Assembly (NCBI GenBank): GCA_038823825.1 | Contig: JAWBCC010000002.1 | Coordinates: 210,001 to 242,000, forward strand | Length of the DNA: 32,000 bases | Source: Candidatus Hadarchaeales archaeon | Lineage (GTDB): Archaea; Hadarchaeota; Hadarchaeia; Hadarchaeales; Hadarchaeaceae | Reading direction: 5' to 3' | Part shown: positions 10,989-30,607 of the stretch, one piece after another | Position numbering within the stretch: position 1 is the stretch's first letter | Layout of the letters: the number at the start of each line of letters is the position of its first letter | Position numbers and translations under genes: made by a program | The notes under the pieces: generated by a model | The model's input: the letters and a program-made list of their open reading frames with translations, nothing else | Databases searched by the model: none | What the model was told of the DNA's origin: nothing

Positions 10989-12098
10989 TCATTCGATGTT
11001 TTCGATCAGTTTGGCAACACGTTCAAGAGAACTCGCATATCTCTTTCTGTGCTCCTTCAGAAAGTCGAGGAGGAGTTCTATAGCCATCTGCTTGCATTCC
11101 CCGCAGATCATTTTCCCGTTCATGCACATCTCTCTGATTTCAAGAAGTTTCTCATCGCTGGGTATCAAGTGATAGAAATATAGATCGAAAACTCTACATA
11201 TGTCCGGATTTCCTCCTTTTTCTCTTTGTTCTCTGGCCGTTGGCTTTCCACCGGTGAACGCATTCATGATCTTTCTCCTCACGGTTTCGTCGTCGTCTGT
11301 GAGAAACACAGCGCTTTCTGGTTTACTGCTTGACATTTTCTCCTCGATCAGCCCCGGCAAGAGTTTGTGATAGGTTGCTGATGGAGGAATGAATCCAAAA
11401 TCTCTCTGGAATCTATTTGCTATATCTCTCGCCAGTCTTATGTGTGGGTCTTGATCGATTCCGACCGGAATGACCGTCGGTATCGGTCCGCAGAATTCGG
11501 GTAGTTGGGGGTGAAGGATGTCCGCCACGTCGATGATCGGATAGTATATCGAGGAAAGGCTGGATTCTCCGGAAAATCCGTAGATCGCCCTTAACTCGCT
11601 GAAGTTGACTTTTTTGGAGAGGAGGAAGGCGAGTTTCTTGACATGCTCATCCGTTGACTGAAAGTAAACGCGGCATCTCGAGAGATCAAGTCCTAAAGCA
11701 TCGTAGTTGGCCAGATATTCTTCGATCGCTATTTTTCTAGCTTCCTCAAGCGATAGATCTCTCGCAGAATATGCCTCTAAATCGGCGACACAGAGAAATA
11801 TCTTTGAACCTTTTATCTTCGAGTACCAGATGAGCTGATCTATCACCATTTTGTGGCCGAGGTGCATCTTTCCGCTCGGCATCAGACCCGTCATGACCGC
11901 GAACTCTTCTCCGCGTAAGATTTTTTCCAAAATTCTTCGAAAATCTCTGTGGCCGAAAATTATCTTTCTCCTCATTATAGTCATTGGGTTTGGGATATCT
12001 GGAAGGAGTTCCTCAAATGGGGATATTCCAAACTCCTCCATTAGCCTCGCATAGTTCTCCGGAAGTGTGGCCTGCCAAGGATCGATTCTGACCGGCAT
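10989..12098 (-). CDS. trpS: tryptophanyl-tRNA synthetase (archaeal/eukaryotic type)
   Basis: Class I motifs are present: the HIGH-like SGKMHLGH and the KMSKS-like KMSSSKP. The N-terminus has DPW...LMEEFGISPF and the product is 369 aa. The ATG follows the endA TGA with no spacer. Confidence 0.88.
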   Translation of the reverse strand: MPVRIDPWQATLPENYARLMEEFGISPFEELLPDIPNPMTIMRRKIIFGHRDFRRILEKILRGEEFAVMTGLMPSGKMHLGHKMVIDQLIWYSKIKGSKIFLCVADLEAYSARDLSLEEARKIAIEEYLANYDALGLDLSRCRVYFQSTDEHVKKLAFLLSKKVNFSELRAIYGFSGESSLSSIYYPIIDVADILHPQLPEFCGPIPTVIPVGIDQDPHIRLARDIANRFQRDFGFIPPSATYHKLLPGLIEEKMSSSKPESAVFLTDDDETVRRKIMNAFTGGKPTAREQREKGGNPDICRVFDLYFYHLIPSDEKLLEIREMCMNGKMICGECKQMAIELLLDFLKEHRKRYASSLERVAKLIENIE

Positions 12099-12626
12099 TC
12101 AGAGCCGCTCCCTGTTTAACGAATAGTATGTTACGTCTCCCTCATCATCGACGATGGCATATAATATTTTTTTACGCACGCTTTGCGCCACTCTGACGTC
12201 GCCAGAGATATCGCTTACACTAAACCTGGCGTGCTCCGGGACTACTCTCACCAAGAATTTCGAGTGAGATTCCGGCGGTTTTTCTCCTTTCTCATAAACT
12301 CTGAAGTGTGCTCCAAACTTTAAGCCTGTTCTTACTATGTATCCTCTGCCGCGCAAGTCTGAGTATGCCGCGTACTTAAGTGGAAGTAGTTTGTCTTTTT
12401 TCGAAAATTTAGCCATCAGCTGATTGAAATCTAACTTCTCTCCGCGTTCGTAAACTTCGAGCTTTCCCTTCTCAACGAGGAATAGGGTTTCAACAGGCGC
12501 GAGCTGTAATTTTCCATCTCCAAGAAGTTTTCCGAAGAATCCCTTCTGATATATCCTGTTTGCCGCGAGGTTATCCGCAACGATCACGCGGTCGCCACAA
12601 AGTTCTCCTTTCGCGATTTCCTCCAT
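12099..12626 (-). CDS. endA: tRNA-splicing endonuclease, short (alpha4 homotetramer-type) subunit
   Basis: YAAYSDLRGRGYIVRTGLKFGAHFRVYEKG...SHSKFLVRVVPE...VRVAQSVRKKILYAIVD closely parallels M. jannaschii EndA (YKDLRTRGYIVKTGLKYGADFRLYERG...HSVYLVKV...VRVAHSVRKKLLIAIVD). The product is 175 aa. Confidence 0.93.
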   Translation of the reverse strand: MEEIAKGELCGDRVIVADNLAANRIYQKGFFGKLLGDGKLQLAPVETLFLVEKGKLEVYERGEKLDFNQLMAKFSKKDKLLPLKYAAYSDLRGRGYIVRTGLKFGAHFRVYEKGEKPPESHSKFLVRVVPEHARFSVSDISGDVRVAQSVRKKILYAIVDDEGDVTYYSLNRERL

Positions 12627-14629: not shown

Positions 14630-15025
14630 GTGGTGGGCATGGGGCTCCACATTATCGCCGAATTCTTAGGGGTGAAAGAGGAGAAAATTGCAACAATAAA
14701 GCAATTGAAGCCGATAGTAGAGAGAGTAGTGAAGAAAAGCGGTTTAAACGTGGTTTCTTCGGCATATCATCAGTTTAAGCCGTATGGAGTCACCTGCGTT
14801 TATCTTTTGATGGAATCGCATCTGGCGATTCACACTTGGCCAGAAGTTTGCTACATGGCTGTGGATATCTTTACATGTGGGAAAAATCGGAAAGCAAAGG
14901 AGACGCTCGAGTTGTTGAGAAAGGAGTTTTCTCCGAAAAAGGTGAAGATGAAGATCATAGGGAGGCTTGAGTATGAGAAGCTACTCGAGAGAAAAGAAAA
15001 TTCTGCGAGAGCTGGCGGGAGGTAA
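14630..15025 (+). CDS. speH: S-adenosylmethionine decarboxylase proenzyme (pyruvoyl, small archaeal/bacterial class)
   Basis: GLHIIAEFLGV...YGVTCVYLLMESHLAIHTWPEVCYMAVDIFTCG contains the self-cleavage E-S site and the HTWPE motif. ATG at 14639 is a likelier start than GTG at 14630. Confidence 0.9.
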   Translation: MVGMGLHIIAEFLGVKEEKIATIKQLKPIVERVVKKSGLNVVSSAYHQFKPYGVTCVYLLMESHLAIHTWPEVCYMAVDIFTCGKNRKAKETLELLRKEFSPKKVKMKIIGRLEYEKLLERKENSARAGGR

Positions 15026-15989
15026 GAAGACTCTTTGGGAGCTTCTCGCGTCGTATCATTGGACTCTGCGAGACTTCATCTCTGATATAAACAGACTCTA
15101 TGACGAGGGGAAGATCTCGACGGATGGGAAGTATATATATCTCAAGGAAAAAATTGGGGCAGATGGTTTTAGCTCGATTGTGTGCCCGAAATGTGATGGA
15201 AGACGTGTTCTTCCAAAAAATCATGTTTTTATAGAGAAAAGATTTAAACGGTTGCTCAGGGATAGGCCTAAACCGGAGGTCAAGTTTTTCCAAGGATATA
15301 TGCGCCCCGAGGATGTTCTAGCCCGAATTGCTTTGATGGATATGTATGGTGACGTGGAGGGAAAGTCAATAATCCTGATCGGAGATGACGACCTTGTGAG
15401 CTTGGCCCTGGCCCTGACGGGACTCCCAGAGAGAATCGTTGTGTTGGATATTGATGAGAGATTGGGAGAATTCATGCGGAAGGCTTTGCGTGAGGATGGG
15501 GTAAAGTCGGTGGAGTTTATACATCATGATGTCGCGGAGCCTCTTCCAAAAGATTTGAGACGGAAGTTCGATGTTTTTGTCACAGACCCGCTCGAGACGG
15601 TTTCTGGGCTCAAGGCTTTCCTATGCAGAGCCGCTTGTGCTCTCAAACCTACGGATTCAGCCGGATATTTCGGTTTGACAACGCTCGAGGCTTCGCCAAA
15701 AAAATGGCTTTGGGTTCAGGGACTTCTCTACAGAATGAATCTTGCGATCACAGATGCCGTGAGGGAGCACTCGAGCTATCCTACCCAAGATTACCACATA
15801 GGTTTTCCGTACGAGGAGCCAATTCTGAAGAAGTTGAAGTTTAAGTATGAGCTTCCGCCGGATGTCTCTTGGTATAAATCGACATTTTTCAGGGCTGAGG
15901 CTGTCGGAAAAGTTAGACCGATTCATTGTTCGAAGCACATCCGCGTGAGGGTTTGGGACGAGGATGACATAACCTGGCCGAATCGTTAG
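14967..15989 (+). CDS. bpsA: N4-bis(aminopropyl)spermidine synthase-like (DUF43, branched-chain polyamine synthase)
   Basis: FFQGYMRPEDVLARIALMDMYGDVEGKSIILIGDDDLVSLALALTGLPERIVVLDIDERL...FDVFVTDPLETVSGLKAF...WYKSTFFRAE matches my recollection of Thermococcus BpsA (GDDDL, VLDIDERL, TDPPETV, WYKS). It overlaps speH by 59 nt, and no in-frame start exists downstream of the speH stop. Confidence 0.8.
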   Translation: MSMRSYSREKKILRELAGGKKTLWELLASYHWTLRDFISDINRLYDEGKISTDGKYIYLKEKIGADGFSSIVCPKCDGRRVLPKNHVFIEKRFKRLLRDRPKPEVKFFQGYMRPEDVLARIALMDMYGDVEGKSIILIGDDDLVSLALALTGLPERIVVLDIDERLGEFMRKALREDGVKSVEFIHHDVAEPLPKDLRRKFDVFVTDPLETVSGLKAFLCRAACALKPTDSAGYFGLTTLEASPKKWLWVQGLLYRMNLAITDAVREHSSYPTQDYHIGFPYEEPILKKLKFKYELPPDVSWYKSTFFRAEAVGKVRPIHCSKHIRVRVWDEDDITWPNR

Positions 15990-16121: not shown

Positions 16122-16252
16122 TGGTGGGGCCGCCAGGATTTGAACCCGGGTTTGCGGGTCTCACCGGCTCCAGTGGGTCATCATCTTTTCGTCAGCAGAC
16201 CCACCTCATTCCACTGGAGCCCGCCGTGATAACCAAGCTACACTACGGCCCC
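16122..16252 (-). tRNA. tRNA-Trp (anticodon CCA) with ~54-nt intron at canonical position 37/38; 3' CCA encoded
   Basis: The minus strand reads GGGGCCG-TA-GTGT-AGCTTGGTTA-TCAC-G-GCGGG-CTCCAG-[intron]-A-CCCGC-AAAC-CCGGG-TTCAAAT-CCTGG-CGGCCCC-A-CCA. The acceptor stem is a perfect 7 bp and the anticodon CCA lies at 16217-16215. The two exons total 77 nt. Confidence 0.9.
16160..16213 (-). ncRNA. tRNA-Trp intron carrying box C/D guide-RNA elements
   Basis: The intron is UGGAAUGAGGUGGGUCUGCUGACGAAAAGAUGAUGACCCACUGGAGCCGGUGAG. It has a canonical D' CUGA (16195-16192) and C' (GA)UGAUGA (16183-16178) separated by a 6-nt loop. The terminal elements are degenerate: C-like AAUGAGG and D-like GUGA. Guide segments are complementary to the tRNA's own anticodon loop and to position 39. 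Confidence 0.6.
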
Positions 16253-16277: not shown

Positions 16278-16290
16278 AAGTTTAAAACTT
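16278..16290 (-). promoter_or_regulatory. TATA-like box for the tRNA-Trp gene
   Basis: The minus strand reads AAGTTTTAAAC, centred about 32 nt upstream of tRNA position +1. It overlaps the stop of the upstream DUF457 gene. Confidence 0.3.
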
Positions 16291-17453
16291 TAAAGAGATG
16301 GTCCAAGCCAGAACAGAAATCCGAACAGGATAAAGAGGACGGAAATTCCCAGAATTCTGAGTATGAGCGGTGGCTTCGGCACTGTTGGCACAAACAAATC
16401 TTCATCCGGTTCTCTTTCCTCTTCTGCCACCGCCGCCACACCAGCCGTTGCAGGAGTCGCAACTTCACCGGCAGCTGCTCTTCCCCTCAGCCAGAGATAA
16501 ACAATCCCTATTATCGACCACGGAACGCAAATAATGAGCAAAAGGTAAATCGGCAGTCCGAGCCTTAATATCGCAGGTACGGCATACGAAGAACTCACCA
16601 AAGCATTGTATTTGTTGAGATTCCAGAGGATTATCGCCATACAAGAGTAAACTATGAGAGAATTCCAGAACGGATCGGAAGCAGAAACCAACTGAAGACC
16701 ACCCAATCTCTTTTTCGTAAATGGCCAGAAGAGATTCCCACCCATATGGCCATAAGAATCAAAGATGATATGCCCAAGCCAACCCAAGAATGCGACGAGC
16801 CATGCTATCCAGTTTCTCAAAATAGCTCCGACCACAGCGGAAAGCAAAAGTCCGAGCGTTATGCTGTGACCGGCCCGTCTGTGGAAGGGAATGAAGATTA
16901 TTTCGACGGATCCGTCCTCCCGCTTGAGAAATCCGAAAGAAGGTCCTCCAAAACCTTTTATCTCCGTCGGCTTTCCGTACGTTTCGATGATGTTTGGCTT
17001 GAATTTCGCGGAAGCGTAGGCCTTCTCCTCCGGAGGTTCTGTTCCGGGAATGGGAACGCCCGACGTTGTCACATGCGGTCCAACCCTAACCTCAACTTTC
17101 TTCTCCTTGGCGTTGAAGAAAACAGAGTACTGTCTCCAGAGATCTGGTCCAAGTCTGATCGTGTGAAGTTTTATTTTATACATTTTGCCAGGTTTCATTT
17201 CCGCAGCCTTGTTTATCCCCTCCGCAACCTTTTCCGCGATTTCTTTCGGGTCGATCTTATCCGGATGAGGATCTATCACCGTGTCGTGTTCCTCCATGTA
17301 AATGAGAAATTTGAAATCGATCGTATCCGGGAGAAGTCCAAATATCCCACCAAGCAAAATTATGAGGGAGTCCTCAGCAGCTGCTCCGAAAACTAGACTC
17401 TTGAAGAACGTGGCGATCGTAAGTCCAACTATGAAGTGGGTTAAGCCGCGCAT
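16290..17453 (-). CDS. membrane-bound metal-dependent hydrolase, DUF457/YdjM-like, with ~140-aa inserted domain
   Basis: MRGLTHFIVGL, GLLPDTIDF, then after the insert FHRRAGHSITLGLL and GHIIFDSYGHMGGNLFWPF follow the DUF457 His/Asp pattern. The ATG at 17453 lies 1 nt after the upstream stop. The track start at 17468 is a TTG that would overlap the upstream gene. Confidence 0.7.
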   Translation of the reverse strand: MRGLTHFIVGLTIATFFKSLVFGAAAEDSLIILLGGIFGLLPDTIDFKFLIYMEEHDTVIDPHPDKIDPKEIAEKVAEGINKAAEMKPGKMYKIKLHTIRLGPDLWRQYSVFFNAKEKKVEVRVGPHVTTSGVPIPGTEPPEEKAYASAKFKPNIIETYGKPTEIKGFGGPSFGFLKREDGSVEIIFIPFHRRAGHSITLGLLLSAVVGAILRNWIAWLVAFLGWLGHIIFDSYGHMGGNLFWPFTKKRLGGLQLVSASDPFWNSLIVYSCMAIILWNLNKYNALVSSSYAVPAILRLGLPIYLLLIICVPWSIIGIVYLWLRGRAAAGEVATPATAGVAAVAEEEREPDEDLFVPTVPKPPLILRILGISVLFILFGFLFWLGPSL

Positions 17454-17454
17454 C

Positions 17455-18774
17455 TCAGTATCCCCCAAGCCAGCACGCTATCTGCTCACCCAAGCCAGCC
17501 ATGTTGAGGAAAATCGGGAAGAAGAAACCCAAAACCAAGTTCAACCTTCTGGTTCTAAACATCGGCGGAATAAGCCCAAGTCCAGTTGTGATCACCAAAA
17601 GTAAAAGACCTGTGGCTCCAGCGAAAATGAAAACTATCGCAAGGATTATCATCATAGCCACAATCGAAATCTTCCTGTAGCTTATTCTTGTGACCATTTT
17701 TGAGAAGACAAACCGCGAAAGCAAGACGAGCAGAATGAATGCGAAGAGGGTGGTGAACGCAATTGTTGCAACGAGAAGCCAGAAATCCGAAGATGATCTT
17801 GGCTGATAGACCATGCTTGTGACCCACGCCATCCCTCCGCGTGTGAGGTGGAGGAGCGGAACCCAAAAGAGGAAGAACGCACCGACGTAGTATGCGAATC
17901 TTCCAGCAGATCCGGAAACCATAAACGAAGTGTCCCCCCTTGTTGACGTAGCATGCCCGGCTAACACTCCCCCAACCCCAGCCGTTATCACGGGCTGGAA
18001 GGCTGCGAAGGTTCCGCCGAGAAAACCGGCCATTGTCCCATGCGCAACTTCCTGCCATCCCGCGTATATCCCAGTCGATTTTGACTGCTCAGGCACCTTG
18101 GGATTCGAGAAGATGTTCATGAGAACCCATGGCATTGCGAAAAATCCGACGAAAACCGGGAGGATGTTCTGGAAGGCTCTGTCAGGGGGCATCACCGGCG
18201 TGTTGAGAACGATGAAGCCCAATATCATCGAGAGGAAAAAGACAAATATCCCGGCAACGAGGCTAGACCAACCATCGGCTAATCTCCCGAGCCTCGTCTT
18301 TTTTCTGCTCCCCCAATCTTTTGGCCATTCAGACATCAAAAGATAAACCACAACCCCAATGAGTATCCACGCGAAGTGTGGTGTGGTTAACCTACGGAAG
18401 ACTTGGAATAAATATGGTGCGGCTGGCGAGATGGCAACGAGAAGGATTGCTGCCCCAATTGCACCAAGCCCAGAAAGAAGGCAAGCTTCCTCTCCCCTAC
18501 CGTATAGCAAATATTTCTGGTTCGGGAAAACCATATAGAAGGTACTGTCGTCTGGCGAACCCATGTATGTTGTTGTTATTATGCCTACAACCGAGTAGGC
18601 TACCAGCATTCCTATGAGAAAGAGCGAAAAAGCTAGAGGATTGAAAGGATACGCAATGTAGATGACGACGGCTAGTCCAGCAAAATTCAATGGATGCAGT
18701 CCCGGCAGGATGGACAAACAGCTCCCGGCGAGAACACCAAGCATACCCCAAAGGAGATAGGCTAAGCTTTCCAT
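17455..18774 (-). CDS. polytopic membrane protein (about 10-12 TM), TctA/DUF112-like
   Basis: 439 aa and almost entirely hydrophobic. Gly-rich helix motifs occur in both halves: GVLAGSCLSILPGLHP and GTMAGFLGGTFAAFQPVITAGVGGVLAG. The SD GGAGGGTG is embedded in the last codons of the upstream gene. The family assignment is tentative. Confidence 0.45.
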   Translation of the reverse strand: MESLAYLLWGMLGVLAGSCLSILPGLHPLNFAGLAVVIYIAYPFNPLAFSLFLIGMLVAYSVVGIITTTYMGSPDDSTFYMVFPNQKYLLYGRGEEACLLSGLGAIGAAILLVAISPAAPYLFQVFRRLTTPHFAWILIGVVVYLLMSEWPKDWGSRKKTRLGRLADGWSSLVAGIFVFFLSMILGFIVLNTPVMPPDRAFQNILPVFVGFFAMPWVLMNIFSNPKVPEQSKSTGIYAGWQEVAHGTMAGFLGGTFAAFQPVITAGVGGVLAGHATSTRGDTSFMVSGSAGRFAYYVGAFFLFWVPLLHLTRGGMAWVTSMVYQPRSSSDFWLLVATIAFTTLFAFILLVLLSRFVFSKMVTRISYRKISIVAMMIILAIVFIFAGATGLLLLVITTGLGLIPPMFRTRRLNLVLGFFFPIFLNMAGLGEQIACWLGGY

Positions 18775-18778
18775 CTTC

Positions 18779-20200
18779 TTACACCCTCCATATGTCTTCT
18801 ATCGAGCAAACATGGAGCACTTTTTCTCCCCCAACCACGGATATTTTTCCAACGGTGTTGATGTTCTCTCCAGCTCTGGGTGGATCCGGCAGTCGCTCAT
18901 AGACGAAGTTTGGAATCAAAACTTTTTGAACCAAACCTGATGGAGATTCGACCATGAGAATTCTGTCGGGTGGGAGAAGACCTTTTTCTCTCGTCGAGAT
19001 CTCGACAATACGACCCGCAACCGTTGCCAAGATGTCGACCTCAAGAGTCTGGAGATTCTCAGCAATGGGAGGCAGAAATTCACCCTCCAAAACATTAGGA
19101 ATTTGTGGCCCGACGAAAGTAACCACAAGCTTACCCTCCCTTTTTTCAACTTTTCCGACGAATTCGATCGAGCTTCCCCTCCTCACAAGCCTCTTCGTTT
19201 CAGGAGGAAGAGTCTGAAAGATTTCCTCTTCTATGTAGGCCTTCGGCATATTTACATTATCCAGCCACAGGATTCTCCTTGTGATCTTTAGACTGGTGGT
19301 GGTACCAACAGCCTCAGAGAGTGTTATTTTTCCAGATGTCTGGATGTAACTTCCGATGAGGTTTTCCGATATCTCAGAGAGTCGGACCAGTTTCGGTTCT
19401 TCTTTTCCCAACACTTCGATATCTGAGAAGAGTCCAACCATGAGCTGAGGTGTCCCCTTGTAGGAAGAAACGCCTCCAGTTATCCTGACTCTATCTAGAA
19501 CTTCCAGCCCGAGCGGTCGTTTTTCAACATAAACTTCGAGACCAAGGGGAACGTAAAGCTGGATTTCAGAGGAACCATCCGAGATGTAATATATGTTTGC
19601 AGAGCCGAGAGCCCGCATAGAGGTTACCACCCCTTCAATCATCACCCTCTTGTAGAGCAGGGCAACATTTCTCAAGACGTCAGAAGGTGTGGAGACGACG
19701 GGTGAAAGGGGCTGGATTTTTATGTCACTGGCGAGGGAAACAGTCATCATCTTATCCCTCTCGGATAAAACTCGCGTTTGACCGAAAATCTTCACCCTGT
19801 CGCCAACACGTGGAATCCTTCTTTCCATGAGTAACTCTTCGAAAGCCGGAGAGTAAACCCTCACCTCTATGGTGGATATCTCTGGATCGGTCGAGCTAAA
19901 GTCTGAGACGGAGAAAGATATGTAGTTTCTCCCATAGAGAGGCCCGGAGGTTACAGTACCCTCAATCAGGTTGTGAGAATAATCCATCCACGTGTCGATC
20001 TGCGAGATGCTTATCGGCTCTTCCCCAGATGCCTTGACGTGCATGAGGAAAGCCCCTACACCAAGCACCGCCAAAATCACACATATAACCCACAAATACA
20101 GAAGCCGGATTTTTCTAGTTGTATCGGTTAGGCAGTGTGGGCACGGAACTTTACCTCCTGTTTCCTTTCCGCAGACCGGGCAGATTTCATTTTTCTTCAA
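18779..20200 (-). CDS. Zn-ribbon / single-TM / four tandem OB-like modules, predicted surface protein (paralogue B)
   Basis: CPVCGKETGGKVPCPHC, then TRKIRLLY plus the helix LWVICVILAVLGVGAFLM, then about 400 aa of beta-rich repeats including RVRITGGVSSYKGTPQLMVGLFSDIEVL. The probable start is TTG at 20200, overlapping the upstream stop as TTGA, with GGTGA 4 nt upstream. The alternative TTG at 20236 would give a 40-nt overlap. Confidence 0.7.
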   Translation of the reverse strand: MKKNEICPVCGKETGGKVPCPHCLTDTTRKIRLLYLWVICVILAVLGVGAFLMHVKASGEEPISISQIDTWMDYSHNLIEGTVTSGPLYGRNYISFSVSDFSSTDPEISTIEVRVYSPAFEELLMERRIPRVGDRVKIFGQTRVLSERDKMMTVSLASDIKIQPLSPVVSTPSDVLRNVALLYKRVMIEGVVTSMRALGSANIYYISDGSSEIQLYVPLGLEVYVEKRPLGLEVLDRVRITGGVSSYKGTPQLMVGLFSDIEVLGKEEPKLVRLSEISENLIGSYIQTSGKITLSEAVGTTTSLKITRRILWLDNVNMPKAYIEEEIFQTLPPETKRLVRRGSSIEFVGKVEKREGKLVVTFVGPQIPNVLEGEFLPPIAENLQTLEVDILATVAGRIVEISTREKGLLPPDRILMVESPSGLVQKVLIPNFVYERLPDPPRAGENINTVGKISVVGGEKVLHVCSIEDIWRV

Positions 20201-21084
20201 GGAATCACCTTTATGTCCTCCCAAGAAGCTACCCAAAGCTGAGGTGTCCCATAGTAGCTTTGAAGAGCCCCGGAAACGGTTATCTTGGCACCAATCGCTG
20301 GGTACGCACCCCCAAACCTCTCGAGGAACTTGGGGATCATGATGTTCATGGACTCCTGCGTTTCGACCTCATACAGCGTCAGATTTTTTGCAAAGCCGAG
20401 GTCGTCTATTGAAATAACTTTTCCTGTGACTTCGAGTCTTTCATACTCCGTGAAGTTTTCCGGGAAGTGAACGACATCATGTATCCTGACTTTCCTACCG
20501 GCCGGACGTTCTATCTTCAAGAAACCTTCAGGATATTGAACGATCAGCATCTGGAACTGGTTGGCTTTATCTCCGACGGCTCTGACCCTTAGGCTTCCTC
20601 TGACCGTCACGATGTCTCCAACAGCTGGGAAAGCCGGAATCGGAGAGCCCTTGGCGAGTCGCTCGCTTTCAAGCCTGATGAGGGCCTTCGTGGTTGCGTC
20701 GTATGCCCTGATGAAAATGCTCGCCTCCGAATTTTCCGGATCGACGAGATACATGCCGAGAAAATTCGTATCCTCGTAAAATTTCACGAAAGTGGCTTTT
20801 CCCGTTAAGACGGCTTGCCCCATGTTCATAAGAGTCGCGTTTTCTTTGAAGAGATCGGATATTGCGATTTGATAAGGCTGTTTTGCGATTATGTGCAATC
20901 CTCTGACGTCCGCGCAGAGGAAAAGAACACCCAAAACGGCGACCGAGAGCCCACCCCACTTGAGCAACCTGAAGGAAAGCCTTTTTGGAACTTTACTTCC
21001 GCAATAGGGACACTTTTCCAGAGTTCCGACGTATCTTTTACAATTTGGGCAAAAGACCTCCTCGGAGGGCCCCACCGGTTTCAT
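20197..21084 (-). CDS. Zn-ribbon / single-TM / two tandem OB-like modules, predicted surface protein (paralogue A)
   Basis: CPNCKRYVGTLEKCPYC, then KVPKRLSFRLLK plus the helix GGLSVAVLGVLFLCA, then an ectodomain ending KITVSGALQSYYGTPQLWVASWEDIKVIP. I prefer the ATG at 21084 (MKPVGP...) over the TTG at 21093. An AT-rich box lies about 30 nt upstream. Confidence 0.7.
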   Translation of the reverse strand: MKPVGPSEEVFCPNCKRYVGTLEKCPYCGSKVPKRLSFRLLKWGGLSVAVLGVLFLCADVRGLHIIAKQPYQIAISDLFKENATLMNMGQAVLTGKATFVKFYEDTNFLGMYLVDPENSEASIFIRAYDATTKALIRLESERLAKGSPIPAFPAVGDIVTVRGSLRVRAVGDKANQFQMLIVQYPEGFLKIERPAGRKVRIHDVVHFPENFTEYERLEVTGKVISIDDLGFAKNLTLYEVETQESMNIMIPKFLERFGGAYPAIGAKITVSGALQSYYGTPQLWVASWEDIKVIP

Positions 21085-21134
21085 GTAAAGCAAACTCTTT
21101 TAGAAGTTCTAACAATAAAAATTTTTTGATTTTT

Positions 21135-21719
21135 GTGCGGGTTGGGGGAATAGACCTCTCGGGAAGTGAGAAGAGACCGACAGGACTGGCATTCCTTGAG
21201 GGTAAAAGATGTTTAACGGCAACGGTTTTCACGGACGATGAGATTCTCGAGCAGTGCTCAAGGCGAAAGGTTTCTCTCATCGCCATAGATGCACCTCTCA
21301 ACTTTCCCAAGGAAGGCAATCTCAGGCTTTGCGATCGCATTTTGATCTCGCGAGGTCTACGCGTCTTTCCGCCGACTTTCGGTGGAATGCGTAAGCTGAC
21401 CGAAAGGGGCATAAGGATTTCCTCCCTCCTTCGTTCCTCGGGCTTTAACGTCATCGAGGTTCATCCGAGAACTTCCGGGATCGTGATTTTCGGCACTCCG
21501 GATAGAGAAAAATGGTTGATGAGACTCAAAAAAGCTGGTTTCAAAATCTCACCGAGTTCTGATCACGAGATCGATGCTATACTTTCCGCTCTCACAGCTT
21601 ACCTCCACTTCAGAGGTTTCACAGAGACCGTCAGCGGTGATGGGGCTATTGTTGTTCCTGGAGAAGCTTCTCAACGAATTTTGCTCCGGACGAGATGCTA
21701 CTCACGGAAACGCCAGTGA
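21135..21719 (+). CDS. DUF429-like predicted RNase H-fold nuclease
   Basis: VGGIDLSGSEKRPTGLAFL, SLIAIDAPL, VIEVHP and DHEIDAILSALTA give the acidic-residue spacing of an RNase H-like fold. The start is GTG 21135 (or TTG 21126). The track's 50-aa N-terminal extension runs antisense into paralogue A and is rejected. Confidence 0.6.
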   Translation: MRVGGIDLSGSEKRPTGLAFLEGKRCLTATVFTDDEILEQCSRRKVSLIAIDAPLNFPKEGNLRLCDRILISRGLRVFPPTFGGMRKLTERGIRISSLLRSSGFNVIEVHPRTSGIVIFGTPDREKWLMRLKKAGFKISPSSDHEIDAILSALTAYLHFRGFTETVSGDGAIVVPGEASQRILLRTRCYSRKRQ

Positions 21720-23711: not shown

Positions 23712-24494
23712 CTAAGCCTGCGCAGGTTTTTTCTTCCTAAGCAGAGCTGCGGCAACAGCGATACAGATGATTATTACAGCAACTCCGGCGATTATTGGCA
23801 GATTTGACATGGGAGCCGCCGCAACCGTTGGCCAGTCGGGTATGTCTACCGTAGCGGAGAAGCTACCAGTTGCCGGTGCGGTTGCGCTAACAACTACGGG
23901 TGTATCTACATCGATATCGAGCTCGTTGGTCGTTACGTCGAGCTTTCCTCCACCCTTGAGATAGACAGTATTCCCAACCTGACGTTCGACTTCAGGCCTG
24001 TATGTTTTTCCTCCCATCTTGAACTCCACGTAGTTGTCCTTTCGCTCGAACGTCATATTCTTCAGACGCAGCCTGACCCGCAAAGTAACGCTCTCCCCTT
24101 CCACCGGTGGTCTCATCACGTAATTGTCTATTTGTGTGTTCTCGGACAACACTTGGATGACTAGTGCTGTTATGCTTTTTTCATCAGGACTGACCCAAGC
24201 CTCCGAGTATTTTGCGCCCTTTGGTGGATATCTTGGCGTCCACCATCCAGTATAAAGATATTCAGTTGATCCAGTTGGCTGCCACCATTCTCCAACGTTG
24301 AAGCAGTTTGTTCCGGAATAGAAATACGCTCTGACTTCCCACGTCCCTCTGTCGAGCGACATTCCAGGAGGCTTACGCAATGTCACGTGCACAGTGTAGG
24401 TGCCACCAGCCTTGATCTGGTCGGTTGCACTTACTAAGGCAGAGCCCAAGAATAAGAGCAGCAAACTTCCTGCAATGATTCCGGCTTTTTTCAT
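23712..24494 (-). CDS. secreted, C-terminally membrane-anchored surface protein, hypothetical
   Basis: The signal-like N-terminus is MKKAGIIAGSLLLLFLGSALVSA/TDQ, starting at ATG 24494 (the track start 24518 adds 8 aa). The body is beta-rich. The C-terminal helix PIIAGVAVIIICIAVAAALL is followed by RKKK. Confidence 0.6.
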   Translation of the reverse strand: MKKAGIIAGSLLLLFLGSALVSATDQIKAGGTYTVHVTLRKPPGMSLDRGTWEVRAYFYSGTNCFNVGEWWQPTGSTEYLYTGWWTPRYPPKGAKYSEAWVSPDEKSITALVIQVLSENTQIDNYVMRPPVEGESVTLRVRLRLKNMTFERKDNYVEFKMGGKTYRPEVERQVGNTVYLKGGGKLDVTTNELDIDVDTPVVVSATAPATGSFSATVDIPDWPTVAAAPMSNLPIIAGVAVIIICIAVAAALLRKKKPAQA

Positions 24495-24600
24495 CCAATC
24501 CAAATAAAATTTTTGCAACGTTTGAGTAATTAAGCCTTATGATGGGAATTTCGGAAATGACTCCAAAAATCCAGTTGGTGGCCAAAATTTTCGTTTATGG

Positions 24601-25365
24601 CTACCCAAACTTTCCTTTTATATAGAATCTGGTTCTTGGATTTCGAGCATTTTTGAATATTCGTCGACTGGTTCCGAATTCTACAAGTTTACCGAGGTAA
24701 AGAAATGCTACATAATCTGAAATTCTTGCCGCCTGCTGTATGTTATGCGTAACTATCACAATCGTATAATTCTTTTTCAAATCGTAGATTAAATTCTCGA
24801 TTTTCCACGTGGAGATGGGATCGAGTGCGGAGCACGGTTCGTCCATGAGAAGAACCTCGGGCTCAACGGCGAGAGCTCTGGCTATGCAGAGTCTCTGTTG
24901 TTGCCCGCCTGAAAGCGCCAAGGCAGGAGAGTCAAGTTTGTTCTTTACTTCATCCCACAAACCGACCTTTTTTAGAACTTCTTCTACTCTTTCATGGATT
25001 TCTTTCCCGCTAAGGCCGCCGTTGATTTTTAATCCGTAGGATACATTTTCGAAAATCGATTTCGGAAACGGATTGGGTTTTTGGAATACTATTCCTATTT
25101 TTTGTCTCAATTCGCTGAGGTCCATCTTCGGAGAGTAGATTGATTTGCCATCTAGCAAGATGTCTCCGCTTACTTTCACGCTGTCAAACATCTCGACCAA
25201 TCGATTGATCGTTTTCAGAAGCGTGGTCTTGCCGCATCCGGATGGGCCGATAATAGCCGTGATTTTATTCTCCGGGATTCTCATGTTTATGTTTTTTAAT
25301 ATCCAGTCCTCACCGAACCAGACGTTCAGATTTTTTATCTTTATTTTGTCTTTCATAATCACCAC
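24601..25365 (-). CDS. pstB: phosphate ABC transporter ATP-binding protein
   Basis: Walker A GPSGCGKTT, signature LSGGQQQRLCIARALA, Walker B LLMDEPCSALDPIST, and the PstB-typical tail FGTSRRIFKNARNPRTRFYIKGKFG. Confidence 0.93.
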   Translation of the reverse strand: MVIMKDKIKIKNLNVWFGEDWILKNINMRIPENKITAIIGPSGCGKTTLLKTINRLVEMFDSVKVSGDILLDGKSIYSPKMDLSELRQKIGIVFQKPNPFPKSIFENVSYGLKINGGLSGKEIHERVEEVLKKVGLWDEVKNKLDSPALALSGGQQQRLCIARALAVEPEVLLMDEPCSALDPISTWKIENLIYDLKKNYTIVIVTHNIQQAARISDYVAFLYLGKLVEFGTSRRIFKNARNPRTRFYIKGKFG

Positions 25366-26213
25366 ATCTTCTTTTTACCATAGTGCCACCTTATGATCGA
25401 GGCTCCAAGGTACATCGTAAGCACGAGCATCATCAGAACAAGTGCTGTTCCAAATGCCATTGGTCTGGCAGCCGTTACATCGGGGTGTTCGACGTTAAGC
25501 ACAAAAAGATGATAGGGGAGAGCCATCACAGGTGCAAATATCGAGTTCGGTAGTCCTCTTGTATAAAAAACGGCCCCCGTAAACAGTATGGGTGCAGTCT
25601 CCCCCGCTGCTCTTCCTATACTCAGCATAGTGCCCGTTATCACGCCCGGTAACGCAGCCGGAAGCACGACTCTAAATATCGTCTGCCACTTGGTTGCTCC
25701 AAGCGCAAGACTCGCTTCTCTAAATTCATTTGGAATGCTCTTCAGGGCTTCCATTGAACTTATCGTTATAGTTGGGAGAGTCATAAGGCTTAGCGTGAAG
25801 GCCGCCGATATGAGCGAGACCCCCCAACCCAAGAACTTGACGAAAAAGACCATGCCAAAAATTCCGAAAATGATCGAAGGAATTCCATTCAGATTGTAAA
25901 TGGCGTTGATAATAGTTTCCCTAATTCTTCCTGGTTTCGCGTATTCTACAAGGTAAATTGCAGTCATCAGACCAAGCGGGAATGAGATGGTGACAGCGAG
26001 CGTTACTAGAAGAAGAGTACCGACTATTGCCGGAAAAATGCCGCCCCTCGTCATTCCCTCCCTCGGAAATCCGGTTAGGAATTCCCAACTCAAAACTCCA
26101 ATTCCGTTTGTCGCTATGAAAAACACCACGAGTCCTATGAACCCCAAAACGATCGTTATCGAAAGACGGGCTATCAGAAACGCGATTTTTTGGGAAATTT
26201 TTCTCGAATTCAT
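25359..26213 (-). CDS. pstA: phosphate ABC transporter permease PstA
   Basis: About 6 TM, with the EAA-loop region EALKSIPNEFREASLALGATKWQTIFRVVLPAALPGVITG. It overlaps pstB by 7 nt and pstC by 4 nt. Confidence 0.9.
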   Translation of the reverse strand: MNSRKISQKIAFLIARLSITIVLGFIGLVVFFIATNGIGVLSWEFLTGFPREGMTRGGIFPAIVGTLLLVTLAVTISFPLGLMTAIYLVEYAKPGRIRETIINAIYNLNGIPSIIFGIFGMVFFVKFLGWGVSLISAAFTLSLMTLPTITISSMEALKSIPNEFREASLALGATKWQTIFRVVLPAALPGVITGTMLSIGRAAGETAPILFTGAVFYTRGLPNSIFAPVMALPYHLFVLNVEHPDVTAARPMAFGTALVLMMLVLTMYLGASIIRWHYGKKKMW

Positions 26214-27157
26214 CTGGCAACCCTCCTAACTTTTCTTGAAATTATCCAGTTTGCAATGAAATTCACAGCAAAGGTTATTGCGAAAAGCACCAGTCCTATC
26301 CCAAATAGAGCACTGTAGTGAAGAGATCCGAACGAGACTTCACCCATCTCAATCGCAATTGTTGCCGGCATAGTTCTAACCGGAGAAAATATAGAGGTAG
26401 GGATTACGGCCGCACCTCCGCTTAACATCATTACTGCAATGGTTTCACCAATGGCTCTTCCCAGTCCAAGCAGGACCCCTCCAACGATTCCAGATGAAGC
26501 TGCCGGTATCACAGCGTTTTTTATTGTTTCCCATTTGGTCGCACCGAGCGCAAATGACGCTTCTCTGTATTCGTTCGGAACTGCTCGTAGAGAATCCTCG
26601 ATTATGCTAAGCATAGTCGGAAGAATCATAAAGGCCAACACGAGCCCAGCAGTTAGCGCAGTCTGTCCAGTCGGTAAACCGAAAAATCTCTGAATGAAAG
26701 GCACGAGTACTACAAGTCCAAAAAATCCGTAGACAACGGATGGGATCGCCGAAAGCACTTCGACCGTGGTTTTGAGGAGATCTCTTACTTTTGAGCTGGC
26801 GATTTCCGAGATGTATATTGCTCCGAACAGCGCCAAGGGAACAGATACTGCCAAAGCAAGCGAAGTTACGAGAAGGCTACCCAATATCATCGGCGCGATG
26901 CCAAAGGAGGGGGGATGAGCGGTAGGTAGCCACTTATGGTTTAAGATAAAATTTGTGACCCCGATATTCGTGAATACCGGAATCGATTGAGTAAAAACGA
27001 ATATGAAGATCAGAAAGACGAAAAATATGGAAAAAGTAGCGAAAAGACCTGTGACGGTCTTTCCGGAAAAGACACGCTTGGTTATCCCGCTAGGGAAAAA
27101 AAATGGTCGCCCACGGGTTTTCTCACGTGAGCGACACGAATCCCTTCTCCTCAACAA
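26210..27157 (-). CDS. pstC: phosphate ABC transporter permease PstC
   Basis: DSLRAVPNEYREASFALGATKWETIKNAVIPAASSGIVGG, multi-TM. TTG start. It overlaps the pstS 3' end by about 35 nt, and no later in-frame start codon exists. Confidence 0.9.
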   Translation of the reverse strand: MLRRRDSCRSREKTRGRPFFFPSGITKRVFSGKTVTGLFATFSIFFVFLIFIFVFTQSIPVFTNIGVTNFILNHKWLPTAHPPSFGIAPMILGSLLVTSLALAVSVPLALFGAIYISEIASSKVRDLLKTTVEVLSAIPSVVYGFFGLVVLVPFIQRFFGLPTGQTALTAGLVLAFMILPTMLSIIEDSLRAVPNEYREASFALGATKWETIKNAVIPAASSGIVGGVLLGLGRAIGETIAVMMLSGGAAVIPTSIFSPVRTMPATIAIEMGEVSFGSLHYSALFGIGLVLFAITFAVNFIANWIISRKVRRVAR

Positions 27158-27971
27158 TTCTCTGCCCCTCCGGCCCCTTGACGAACTCTATGAACTCTTT
27201 AGCGAGCCCAGATGGCTCTCCAATAGTGTACATGTAAAGAGCTCTCGAAATCGGATACGTTCCATTTAAGATGTTTTGTTTTGTTGGAAGAACTCCGTTT
27301 ACTGCAAGTGCTTTAACACCGCTGATATAACTGATGCCGACATAACCAATTGCATTTGGGTTTGTTGAAACAATTTGTCGCATTTCTCCGCTCGACATTG
27401 TTGTTAGTACAGAAGAGGACATGTTCTCTCCTCTCATCACCAGTTCATGGAATGATTCGTACGTTCCGGAGGTAGTTTCTCTGGTATACACAGCGATCGT
27501 AAGATTCGGTCCACCTACTTCCGACCAATTCCTTATTTCTCCAGTGTATATCTTCTTTATCTGCTCCAAGGTCAGGCTGTTCACAGGATTGCTCGGATGG
27601 ACTATCACCGCTAGGGCGTCTAGCGCGATTTTATGCTCGACCAGTCGTCCTCCAGCTCTCTCATTTTCTATGTTCTTTGCGCGTCTTGAAGACGTGGCTA
27701 TATCGCATCTACCCTCTATTAGGGATGTTATGCCGACACCGGAGCCGCCACCCGAAACATTAATAGTGTCGTACGGGTGAGCGTTCATCCATCTTTCCGC
27801 AGCAAGCTGTGTTATCGGTAAAACGGTGGTGGAGCCAGCGATGTTTATCGATCTTGGTTGAATGTTTGAACCATTTTCGCCTACTTCGTTCGTTCTTATG
27901 CCTACTAGAAAGACCGTAACCAGCACAATACCCAGGGCCACCGAGGCCACAACTACTGTCGTAACTTTCAT
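27123..27971 (-). CDS. pstS: phosphate ABC transporter substrate-binding protein PstS
   Basis: The N-terminal anchor/signal is MKVTTVVVASVALGIVLV, followed by GSTTVLPITQLAAERW, VSGGGSGVGI and SGTYESF. I prefer the ATG at 27971 over the track's TTG at 28019. TATA-like CTATATAAAA lies on the minus strand at 28001-28010. Confidence 0.9.
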   Translation of the reverse strand: MKVTTVVVASVALGIVLVTVFLVGIRTNEVGENGSNIQPRSINIAGSTTVLPITQLAAERWMNAHPYDTINVSGGGSGVGITSLIEGRCDIATSSRRAKNIENERAGGRLVEHKIALDALAVIVHPSNPVNSLTLEQIKKIYTGEIRNWSEVGGPNLTIAVYTRETTSGTYESFHELVMRGENMSSSVLTTMSSGEMRQIVSTNPNAIGYVGISYISGVKALAVNGVLPTKQNILNGTYPISRALYMYTIGEPSGLAKEFIEFVKGPEGQRIVEEKGFVSLT

Positions 27972-28025
27972 TTTATCCCCAAGTAACGAAAAAGCGCTTC
28001 TTTTATATAGATTGTCCAAATATTT

Positions 28026-28050
28026 TATATACCTGTAAATTAAGTATATA
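28026..28050. promoter_or_regulatory. inverted repeat TATATAC-N11-GTATATA in the pstS/phoU divergent promoter region
   Basis: TATATAC at 28026-28032 and GTATATA at 28044-28050 are exact reverse complements. The left arm lies about 27 nt upstream of the phoU ATG at 28056, the position expected for a TATA box of a leaderless transcript. Confidence 0.35.
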
Positions 28051-28055
28051 GATCG

Positions 28056-29096
28056 ATGGCAGAGAGAAAAGAGGAAAGCAGGAGAATCCAGTTAACCGGA
28101 AAGTCCACTTACATCGTTTCTCTTCCGAAGTGGTGGGCCTCTGAAATGAAACTCAAACCAGGGGATATCATTAACATGATCGTTCAAGATGATTCCCTGT
28201 TGCTGACTGTAAGAAAGTCAGCCGTGGAACACGAAAGAGAGAGAGAAGCCACCCTGAAGGTTTTACCCGATGAAAATCCAGACAAGATCATTAGAAAAAT
28301 AGTTTCGCTCTATCTTGTTGGCTATAACACAATCAGGATAATATCTGAGAAGGAAAGGATATCAAATCTGCAGAGCGAATTAATAAAGAATTTTGTGAGA
28401 ACCAAGCTAATCGGGACAGAGGTGATTATGGACCTCCCCACCGAGATAGTGGTTAAGGTGATACTCAGCTATCCGGAATTATCGATAAGAGACGCTGTTA
28501 GGAGGATGACGCTAATCACAAAGTCGATGATCGAAGACTCGATAGAAGCCTTGAACAAAAAAGACCACGAGCTGGCCAGAAGCGTGATAGTCAGAGATGA
28601 TGATGTGGACAGATTTAGTATGTATATAATAAGGCAGCTGAAATCTGCCGTAGGAGATCGCAGAATAATGCGCGATGTTGGGATTGAAAGCGCGCGCGAT
28701 TGTTTAGGATATCGACTGATCGTCAAAAGTGTGGAGAGAATTGCGGATCATGCTTCCACGATTTCCAAGAATGTGATTAAACTGCGAGGCGCAATCGATC
28801 ATTCGGTTGTCGAGAAGCTTTCAGAAATGAAAGACCTAGTGGTGAGAGCATTTGAGAAAACAATCGAGTCACTTTTCAAAGAAGACCCAGAGTTATCCGA
28901 GGAGGTCATCGGGATGAAAGAGCTCGTCGTAAAATCCGAGAATCAAATAGACGAGATGATCATGAAAAAACCAGCGCGCACGGACGCGATAGTTATCAGC
29001 CTGATCGTCGAAAGTCTGCGTAGAATGTACGAGTACAGCTGTGACATAGCAGAAGTAGTCTTGAATTTAACGTTAGAGAAGCAACAGGCGGTCTGA
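28056..29096 (+). CDS. phoU: phosphate-uptake regulator: N-terminal AbrB/SpoVT-type DNA-binding domain fused to PhoU repeats
   Basis: The N-terminus RIQLTGKSTYIVSLPKWWASEMKLKPGDIINM is a swapped-hairpin AbrB-like motif. Two PhoU-like helical repeats follow (VIVRDDDVDRFSMYIIRQL..., SVERIADHASTISKNV, RRMYEYSCDIAEVV). It is divergent from pstSCAB. Confidence 0.8.
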   Translation: MAERKEESRRIQLTGKSTYIVSLPKWWASEMKLKPGDIINMIVQDDSLLLTVRKSAVEHEREREATLKVLPDENPDKIIRKIVSLYLVGYNTIRIISEKERISNLQSELIKNFVRTKLIGTEVIMDLPTEIVVKVILSYPELSIRDAVRRMTLITKSMIEDSIEALNKKDHELARSVIVRDDDVDRFSMYIIRQLKSAVGDRRIMRDVGIESARDCLGYRLIVKSVERIADHASTISKNVIKLRGAIDHSVVEKLSEMKDLVVRAFEKTIESLFKEDPELSEEVIGMKELVVKSENQIDEMIMKKPARTDAIVISLIVESLRRMYEYSCDIAEVVLNLTLEKQQAV

Positions 29097-30033: not shown

Positions 30034-30607
30034 AATTTTGGTAAAAACAGCAAGGACGGTGATAGAAGAATACGTCAAGTACGGTAGAATCCCTCCCAAG
30101 CCTCAAGTCCCGGAAAGTCTTAAGCAACCCCGGGGAGTTTTTGTGACTCTCGAGAAGAGGGGAGAACTCAGAGGATGCATAGGTTATCCTTTCCCTTCGA
30201 TGCCTCTGATAGATGCTCTTGTGGACGCGGCAATCAGTTCTGCTACGAGAGACCCCCGTTTTGAACCGGTCGGTCCTGAGGAGCTCGATGAGATAGAGAT
30301 AGAGGTGAGTGTGCTCTCAAAACCCGAGGAAATTCGCGTGAAACATCCTAGAGAATATCTCGAAAAGATAGAAATCGGACGTGATGGTCTCATAGTTCAA
30401 TATGGTGGATACTCGGGTCTCTTGCTCCCTCAAGTTCCGGTCGAATGGGGATGGGATGTCGAAGAATTCCTCTGTCAGACGTGCATGAAAGCTGGCCTTC
30501 CTCCAGACTATTGGCTGAAGAAGGATGTCAAGATAATGAAGTTTACGGCTCAGATATTTCGCGAAAGGTCTCCGGGCGGGGAAGTCGAGGAGAGGAGACT
30601 CATCTAG
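29993..30607 (+). CDS. AMMECR1 domain protein
   Basis: LSLEEGKILVKTARTVIEEYV...PRGVFVTLEKRGELRGCIGYPFP...DPRF includes the diagnostic LRGCIG motif. It overlaps Mut7-C by 41 nt. Confidence 0.88.
   Translation: MNVRSENLSLEEGKILVKTARTVIEEYVKYGRIPPKPQVPESLKQPRGVFVTLEKRGELRGCIGYPFPSMPLIDALVDAAISSATRDPRFEPVGPEELDEIEIEVSVLSKPEEIRVKHPREYLEKIEIGRDGLIVQYGGYSGLLLPQVPVEWGWDVEEFLCQTCMKAGLPPDYWLKKDVKIMKFTAQIFRERSPGGEVEERRLI

Follow-up and report, generated by a model that had tools for sequence, protein, structure and literature searches.

Archaea are without ComEC, and the only prior candidates for passing DNA across their membrane during natural transformation are OB-fold genes, and genes resembling TctA (a family of secondary solute transporters), that came from one Methanococcus transposon screen. 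In Methanococcus maripaludis, in-frame deletions of MMJJ_13020, which encodes an OB-fold protein with one transmembrane (TM) helix, and of the adjacent MMJJ_13030, whose TctA-like product has 11 TM helices, abolish natural transformation, and the defects are complemented (Fonseca 2023, PMC10133366). Deletion of the TctA-like homologue in M. thermophilus also abolishes transformation, and the TctA-like protein was proposed by the authors as the missing archaeal DNA transporter; surface and pilus genes were recovered in the same screen (PMC10133366).

The window analysed here, meaning the whole stretch of 32,000 nts from a Candidatus Hadarchaeales archaeon, contains four genes, A to D, read from its sequence and packed on the minus strand at 16290–21084. 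As with MMJJ_13020 and MMJJ_13030, a gene for a single-pass protein with PF01336-type OB folds is followed by an adjacent co-directional gene for a TctA-family protein that is without TctB or TctC, and the host is related to Euryarchaeota. The differences are that the window has two OB paralogues (two plus four OB folds) with N-terminal Zn-ribbons, and a translationally coupled YdjM/DUF457 gene which is absent from the Methanococcus account (PMC10133366). The two loci are equated by Pfam family, architecture and the order of their genes, and a requirement for natural transformation is known only from M. maripaludis and M. thermophilus. The initial annotation had offered the cluster as a candidate undescribed system, and knew of no experimentally defined function in archaea for any of its genes; in the light of the genetics in PMC10133366 this is wrong for the OB and TctA-like families. 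On present analysis the balance tips slightly towards A–D being the Hadarchaeal version of a conserved OB-fold/TctA-like module, most likely one that takes up extracellular DNA through the cytoplasmic membrane.

Organization of the locus

Gene A (20197–21084) encodes 295 amino acids from an ATG at 21084, gene B (18779–20200) 473 from a TTG, gene C (17455–18774) 439 and gene D (16290–17453) 387 from an ATG, all on the minus strand. The tight packing noted initially is confirmed, with one overlap of 4 nts and gaps of 4 nts and 1 nt. The stop codon of A, TGA at 20199–20197, overlaps an in-frame TTG at 20200 that GGTGA closely precedes, and the same 4-nt overlapping start of B was chosen by gene callers in two related contigs. 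The B stop codon, TAA at 18781–18779, is followed after 4 nts by the ATG of C at 18774, and GGAGGGTG is within the last codons of B, ahead of that start. A single nucleotide separates the TGA of C from the ATG of D at 17453.

Some 30–40 nts 5′ of the ATG of A at 21084 is the A/T-rich AAAAAATTTTTATT. This TATA/BRE-like stretch (21095–21134, minus strand) is, from its sequence and position, a putative archaeal promoter for gene A, and we infer that it is common to the divergent DUF429 gene. (A sigma-70 promoter and terminator scan was uninformative on this archaeal DNA.) At the other end, a minus-strand tRNA-Trp(CCA) gene with a 54-nt intron (16122–16252; Rfam RF00005, 49.4 bits) begins 37 nts past the stop codon of D, and is the downstream boundary of the cluster, itself lying outside it. 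It was recovered only with Rfam and with aragorn -i, default ARAGORN giving no tRNA. PADLOC matched none of A–D and NCBIfam had no match for C or D, so a defence-system reading of the cluster was dropped.

The encoded proteins

The domain assignments first made for the four proteins all hold on Pfam comparison, AF2 modelling and paralogue alignment. The N-terminus of A is a CxxC...CxxC Zn-ribbon, with a TM helix at about residues 40–62 by hydropathy, and two OB-fold modules; its Pfam zinc-ribbon and tRNA_anti-codon matches are weak. A is colinear with residues 6–264 of its paralogue B (25% identity, E 8e-15), in which a Zn-ribbon and one TM helix (33–57) precede four tandem OB folds. B matches the tRNA_anti-codon OB family (PF01336) at 7.5e-11. 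Its AF2 model (pLDDT 85.4) shows four beta-barrel modules besides a single TM helix, and the Foldseek matches to it are tandem-OB DNA binders (p204 HIN at 5e-14, Teb1, POT1 and RPA). Among members of the A/B family PF01336 is matched by 51 of 53, and the OB profile finds RPA32, Stn1 and ExoVII in the PDB. While a few members match the ligand-binding OB families BOF or CcmE-type, nucleic-acid-binding OB families are matched far more often. The ectodomains are mildly acidic (pI 6.0 for A and 5.2 for B). A word-indexed homologue search with B returned only 6 proteins, a count that understates the family, since tblastn on fetched loci shows it to be broad.

C matches Pfam TctA (PF01970) at E 4.7e-39 over positions 1–423 of the 423 in the profile. 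It is polytopic with at least 10 hydrophobic segments by hydropathy, and an alignment of its homologues has many invariant polar residues; its profile matched no PDB sequence. Neither TctB nor TctC is present among the scanned window ORFs. When 72,556 plasmids were searched by tblastn with C, there was one match (23% identity), in a cyanobacterial plasmid locus where an OB protein adjoins and the order is OB–TctA-like–NERD. Judged by sequence, C is very distant from plasmid-borne TctA, and plasmid tctA genes are missed by tblastn with C.

E. coli YdjM and YbcI are DUF457 predicted membrane-bound metal-dependent hydrolases, and ydjM is LexA-regulated; to our knowledge, hydrolase activity has been experimentally tested for no YdjM/DUF457 member. 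D resembles them in its match to YdjM (PF04307), above threshold (48.4 bits against a 29-bit cutoff, 1e-12), and in having a conserved His/Asp cluster at helix ends. It differs in a conserved alpha/beta insert of ~130 amino acids (residues ~55–190) by which the match is split, in an extra C-terminal TM helix in Hadarchaeota, and in the linkage of its subfamily to TctA-like genes. The subfamily is small: at E<=1e-30, a search of 1.84 billion representatives yields ~189 clusters. Homologues begin MRG/MKG(L/I)THF, and D46, H191, R192, H196, H228, D232 and N240 are invariant among them. The conserved residues, placed on the AF2 model (pLDDT 86.9, pTM 0.83), suggest an active site at the membrane interface, and the positive-inside rule applied to 32 homologues predicts that the Asp/His cluster and the insert are cytoplasmic. 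Foldseek comparison of the model with the PDB gave nothing significant (best E 0.19), and so no likeness to a nuclease or other solved structure. Matches of the insert to Ten1, CcmE and Stn1 were too weak to be counted as evidence of its fold.

Recurrence in other genomes

The initial annotation left co-occurrence of the families to be checked, and the order OB/TctA-like/YdjM does recur across archaeal and bacterial phyla. The sample is the 80 closest C-family loci listed from a scan of genome contigs, with neighbours counted by tblastn. Among these closest loci, A–B–C–D is present in all those from Hadarchaeota; elsewhere an OB gene is upstream of C in 49/56, D is downstream in 28/57, and both are present in 22/45. 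The non-Hadarchaeota hosts are Anaerolineae, Spirochaetes, Muiribacteriota, Asgard archaea and Archaeoglobales. A Promethearchaeota locus has the order LTD/PLD–OB–OB–TctA–YdjM and another archaeal locus OB–TctA–YdjM. In at least 9 loci from outside Hadarchaeota C and D overlap or almost do, and in one MAG (L021) an 810-amino-acid ORF is a TctA+YdjM fusion. There are no further such fusions among the best 150 of the D-profile matches in 1.84 billion representatives, and this single case could be an assembly artefact. An apparent OB–C fusion in L075 is really a wrong-frame shadow ORF.

The neighbours include nuclease-like proteins: LTD+PLD proteins in several loci and a NERD protein in one. LTD domains are typical of secreted nucleases. 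PLD-superfamily and LPG_synthase_TM genes are 3′ of D in several Anaerolineae loci, and in some bacterial loci the OB gene is separated from C by unrelated genes, among them beta-propeller, amidohydrolase and GNAT genes. Of the related contigs, just one has a separate metallo-beta-lactamase gene next to A. No gene for a glycosyltransferase or for lipid synthesis is conserved from locus to locus. In the literature no report was found of the YdjM-insert partner, of the recurrent LTD-PLD or NERD nuclease-like neighbours, or of the distribution of the module across both domains.

Proposed DNA uptake and its alternatives

Uptake of DNA in a ComEC-like manner, one idea offered with the initial annotation, fits the published transformation genetics of MMJJ_13020 and MMJJ_13030 (PMC10133366). 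By their architecture, A and B are single-pass proteins with cytoplasmic Zn-ribbons and six tandem OB folds outside, and these folds, were they to bind DNA, would hold it at the membrane surface as it comes in. C, which is of the 11-TM class, would itself translocate the DNA or be indispensable to the component that does, as may be deduced from what the deletions do in M. maripaludis and M. thermophilus. D, a metal hydrolase of YdjM type embedded in the membrane, would be physically coupled to C, because of the stop/start coupling of their genes in many phyla and the one C–D fusion. Given the predicted cytoplasmic position of the Asp/His cluster and of the inserted beta-rich domain, D is probably at the cytoplasmic exit, where its task may be to process the strand coming in, to pass it on, or to serve as a scaffold subunit; this is the least certain step. 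The large, secreted LTD-PLD proteins, or the NERD neighbours, of other lineages may supply extracellular or auxiliary nuclease activity.

The analogy to a split ComEC, proposed initially, stands only in part. The parts list is formally parallel, as A–D combine extracytoplasmic OB folds with a polytopic protein of the membrane and with a metal hydrolase. In addition, the first OB module and TM helix of the A/B family weakly match DUF4131 (PF13567), the ComEC N-terminal OB region, in 22 of 53 members at <=0.01 (best 5.9e-7), with the match of B itself, at E 1.2e-3 and 19 bits, being under the 31.6-bit cutoff. However, A–D are distinct polypeptides, the fold of C is of TctA/ion-transporter type, and there is no Pfam match in A–D to the competence TM domain (PF03772) at E<=1. 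Nor does Pfam give a metallo-beta-lactamase domain in A–D, D being YdjM and not Lactamase_B. The ComEC nuclease acts outside whereas the catalytic face of D is predicted to be cytoplasmic, so the analogy is partial and D is no obvious stand-in for that external nuclease.

Several considerations count against DNA uptake. The Methanococcus transformation defect could be indirect. For conduction of DNA by TctA, we know of no structural precedent or biochemical demonstration in any organism. No likeness to a nuclease is detectable in D, whose predicted active face is cytoplasmic, and genes are interposed in some bacterial loci. The ComEC OB fold is described as binding DNA electrostatically (PMC12455585), and the acidic ectodomains of A and B count against uptake in that comparison. 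The scanned window ORFs include no pilus gene and no other competence gene. A bolder proposal, which can be entertained only tentatively, is that the OB/TctA-like/YdjM-insert module with its LTD-PLD or NERD satellites is a ComEC-independent DNA importer of both domains, in which a secondary-transporter fold has been recruited for the passage of DNA, and the strand that enters is acted on at the cytoplasmic side by a DUF457 membrane hydrolase. [The lineages that it spans are Asgard archaea, Hadarchaeota, Archaeoglobales, Chloroflexota, Spirochaetes and cyanobacteria.]

The alternative that survives best, though unlikely, is that C moves a solute as a secondary transporter of elevator type, in the TTT/ion-transporter class, with A and B replacing TctC as extracytoplasmic receptors and D replacing the TctB scaffold or trimming the substrate (candidates are oligonucleotides, oligosaccharides, metal ions and organic acids). 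In tripartite transporters the small and large subunits are sometimes fused, which the C–D fusion resembles. Like TctA of Salmonella TctABC, C belongs to PF01970 over its whole length; the acidic ectodomains and the few BOF or CcmE-type matches are in keeping with a solute receptor, and arCOG04469/COG1784 were classed as likely carboxylate transporters by Makarova et al. 2015 (PMC5898192). But the scanned window ORFs include neither TctB nor TctC, C is shorter (439 amino acids), and OB and YdjM proteins are conserved beside it in place of a binding protein of TctC type. The distance of C from plasmid TctA, its sole plasmid match being again OB-linked, also argues against solute transport, as do the strong leaning of the OB profile to nucleic-acid-binding families, the recurrence of nuclease-like LTD-PLD and NERD genes beside the module, and the Methanococcus phenotype, which is lost transformation (PMC10133366).

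A role in envelope or lipid maintenance is improbable. D would then hydrolyse a membrane lipid or lipid-linked polymer, C would export or import the product, and the OB proteins would bind surface glycan, with the transformation defect an indirect surface or pilus effect. The membrane-interface position of the D active site, the PLD-superfamily and LPG_synthase_TM genes after D in several Anaerolineae loci, and the recovery of surface and pilus genes in the Methanococcus screen (PMC10133366) would suit this, but the PLD proteins carry the LTD domains typical of secreted nucleases, the OB folds are of tRNA_anti/RPA/Stn1 type, and the loci show no conserved gene for a glycosyltransferase or for lipid synthesis. 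That A–D are mere syntenic neighbours without common function is effectively refuted: in Hadarchaeota synteny extends to the flanking genes (TFB, DUF429, GGR-like), and conservation inside the phylum is therefore uninformative by itself, but phyla of both domains that are unrelated, and whose flanks differ, have the trio too, junctions are stop/start-coupled and there is one C–D fusion.

This locus and its relatives place the OB/TctA-like pair in a larger conserved module with a specific YdjM-type hydrolase partner and recurrent nuclease-like neighbours, one that uncultured bacteria and Asgard archaea also widely carry. The module offers a defined parts list and a first functional context for one DUF457 subfamily, and it points to misnaming of many genes that bear the annotation ‘tripartite tricarboxylate transporter permease’.

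Gene order and flanks of the cluster

Four successive minus-strand ORFs, A to D, fill positions 16290-21084 of the window: the OB-fold paralogues A (20197-21084) and B (18779-20200), the TctA-family gene C (17455-18774) and the YdjM/DUF457 gene D (16290-17453). At the A/B junction the A stop codon TGA (20199-20197) overlaps a TTG in frame at 20200, with GGTGA just before it; in two related contigs gene callers likewise start B at this 4-nt overlap. Four nucleotides lie between the B stop and the C ATG at 18774, with GGAGGGTG within the final B codons ahead of the C start, and 1 nt separates the C stop from the D ATG at 17453. An A/T-rich, TATA-like stretch is present 5′ of A. It is common to A and a divergent DUF429 gene (20985-21719, plus strand), an arrangement syntenic in every Hadarchaeota locus examined. 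As the listed DUF429 ORF start overlaps A, its true start is probably further downstream.

In the window the cluster stands among archaeal housekeeping genes, namely those for A-type ATPase, tRNA splicing endonuclease, TFB and the polyamine synthase BpsA. A tRNA-Trp(CCA) gene with a 54-nt intron (16122-16252, minus strand) starts 37 nt past the D stop; Rfam and aragorn -i find it and default ARAGORN does not. Its intron bears box C/D-like motifs (GATGATGA and CTGA), and genes for a tRNA-splicing endonuclease (12099-12626) and a class Ib (Trp/Tyr) tRNA synthetase (10989-12098), both minus strand, are about 4 kb away. S-adenosylmethionine decarboxylase and, after it, branched-chain polyamine synthase BpsA (14630-15989, plus strand) are genes typically paired in (hyper)thermophiles. 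About 3.5 kb from the cluster is an operon for a phosphate ABC transporter, comprising a PstS-like binding protein, two permeases and an ATPase, together with a PhoU/MazE-domain regulator (24601-29096); no conserved linkage of it to the cluster was seen in other loci. ORFs of 507, 268, 182 and 261 aa (10-1533, plus; 23712-24518 and 30600-31917, minus) are without a Pfam match at E≤1e-5.

Domain anatomy of the four proteins

Residues 6-264 of B (473 aa) are colinear with its paralogue A (295 aa; E 8e-15). The N-terminus of each is a CxxC...CxxC zinc ribbon; basic residues and then one TM helix come next, and from this order an N-in topology is predicted with the remainder outside. B has a Pfam tRNA_anti-codon OB match (7.5e-11) and a weak match to DUF4131, the ComEC N-terminal region. 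Its AF2 model (pLDDT 85.4) has four β-barrel modules past the TM helix, and with it Foldseek retrieves tandem-OB DNA-binding proteins (p204 HIN at 5e-14, Teb1, TEBP-alpha, POT1, RPA and CST). Among 53 members of the OB family, PF01336 is matched in 51, tRNA_anti_2 in 46 and DUF4131 in 22 (best 5.9e-7); the family profile finds the OB domains of RPA32, Stn1, AspRS and ExoVII in PDB.

C (439 aa) covers the whole Pfam TctA model (4.7e-39). Its homologues in two Hadarchaeum loci (L010 and L011) are 508 aa, about 70 aa longer.

Judged by its sequence, D (387 aa) is a member of an insert-bearing subfamily of the YdjM family, its above-threshold Pfam YdjM/DUF457 match being interrupted by an insert of ~130 residues. 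An NCBI protein of a Candidatus Hadarchaeales MAG matches it with 100% identity, and the subfamily is a small one, of 189 clusters at E≤1e-30 in a search of 1.84 billion representatives. In 32 homologues D46, H191, R192, H196, H228, D232 and N240 are invariant, and the insert is conserved as well (Y109, G125 and a G170-P171 motif). The AF2 model is confident (pLDDT 86.9, pTM 0.83) and gives the insert one helix and about nine strands; Foldseek of the model against PDB found no solved structure resembling it (best E 0.19). Short loops of these homologues average 5.5 Lys+Arg on the side of the Asp/His cluster and insert versus 1.0 on the opposite side, from which a cytoplasmic position of the catalytic face is predicted. 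The ORFs, junctions and domain anatomy described in the initial annotation are accurate, as ORF, Pfam, AF2 and Foldseek analyses bear out.

Occurrence in other genomes

Because a word-indexed search with B gave six Hadarchaeales proteins and no others, the survey was anchored on C: 185,579 species genomes were scanned, and the best 80 loci were searched by tblastn with A, B and D. A-B-C-D is present in every Hadarchaeota locus with enough flank. Elsewhere among these 80, a same-strand A/B-type gene is upstream of C in 49 of 56 evaluable loci, a D-type gene is downstream in 28 of 57 (18 of them <200 nt away), and both are present in 22 of 45. These non-Hadarchaeota loci are from Anaerolineae/Thermoflexales, Spirochaetes, Muiribacteriota, Planctomycetia, Chlamydiota, UBP18, Archaeoglobales and Njordarchaeota. 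In at least nine of them the stop of C overlaps the start of D or almost touches it. In an Anaerolineales MAG, a single 810-aa ORF (L021, 3117-5549) is a TctA+YdjM fusion; the only one seen, it could be an assembly artefact. D-anchored searching gave a Promethearchaeota locus with the order LTD/PLD-OB-OB-TctA-YdjM, another archaeal locus with OB-TctA-YdjM, and a bacterial one in which D is present without C.

Nuclease-like neighbours recur. A very large protein (~1000-1600 aa) with lamin-tail and two PLD-like domains is beside the module in several Anaerolineae and one Promethearchaeota (Asgard) MAG (L021 5203-8418; L048 9233-12343; L055 10518-14267; L085 1-2812), and may be a secreted nuclease partner. 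On a cyanobacterial (Cylindrospermopsis) plasmid (NZ_CP060823; L084 4198-8376) OB-fold, TctA-like (23% identity to C) and NERD nuclease-related proteins are in succession. A metallo-β-lactamase-fold gene directly upstream of A in one Hadesarchaea contig (L001 6392-7063) has no conserved counterpart at the other loci.

Probable relation to archaeal DNA uptake

The cluster is most likely, on sequence grounds, the Hadarchaeal form of a DNA-uptake module. In-frame deletion of either the OB gene or the TctA-like gene abolished natural transformation in Methanococcus, with both complemented, and deletion of the TctA-like homologue in Methanoculleus thermophilus gave the same loss (Fonseca et al. 2023, PMC10133366). 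Since ComEC is absent from archaea, the TctA-like protein was proposed there as the missing DNA transporter. By Pfam family, architecture and gene order the cluster is probably a member of the module typified by the adjacent M. maripaludis genes MMJJ_13020 (OB fold, one TM) and MMJJ_13030 (TctA-like); it has two of the four defining features, a TctA-family protein encoded without TctB or TctC and a neighbouring gene for a one-TM OB-fold protein, and would work alike. The initial suggestion of DNA uptake thus fits Methanococcus genetics, and the system cannot be termed undescribed, its OB and TctA-like pair being already tied to natural transformation. Architecture, gene order, conservation across domains, C-D coupling and nucleic-acid-type OB folds are observed here, while the need for the pair in transformation is taken from the literature, from organisms other than Hadarchaeota.

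A and B would hold DNA outside the membrane, and C would pass it or be essential to its passage. D would act together with C, processing or receiving the strand at the exit or serving as a scaffold subunit, the weakest link of the proposal. Counter to DNA uptake are the mildly acidic ectodomains of A and B and the place of TctA-family folds among secondary transporters, and in Methanococcus the phenotype might also be an indirect one. The TctA-like family (arCOG04469/COG1784) had earlier been listed as mostly stand-alone genes for probable carboxylate transporters (Makarova et al. 2015, PMC5898192). The cluster is not a TctABC transporter, as TctB and TctC are absent from the window ORFs scanned. 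Nor is it a ComEC, and the likeness to a split one is partial: by Pfam the competence and MBL domains are absent, the weak DUF4131 signal alone being present, and the ComEC nuclease is external (PMC12455585), whereas the catalytic face of D is predicted to be cytoplasmic.

In the literature searched, no published mention was found of the YdjM/DUF457 partner, of LTD-PLD or NERD neighbours, or of the bacterial and Asgard distribution. Modules of this kind are recently recognised and still obscure in mechanism; with the present analysis they gain a third component that is conserved, and a far wider distribution than reported.
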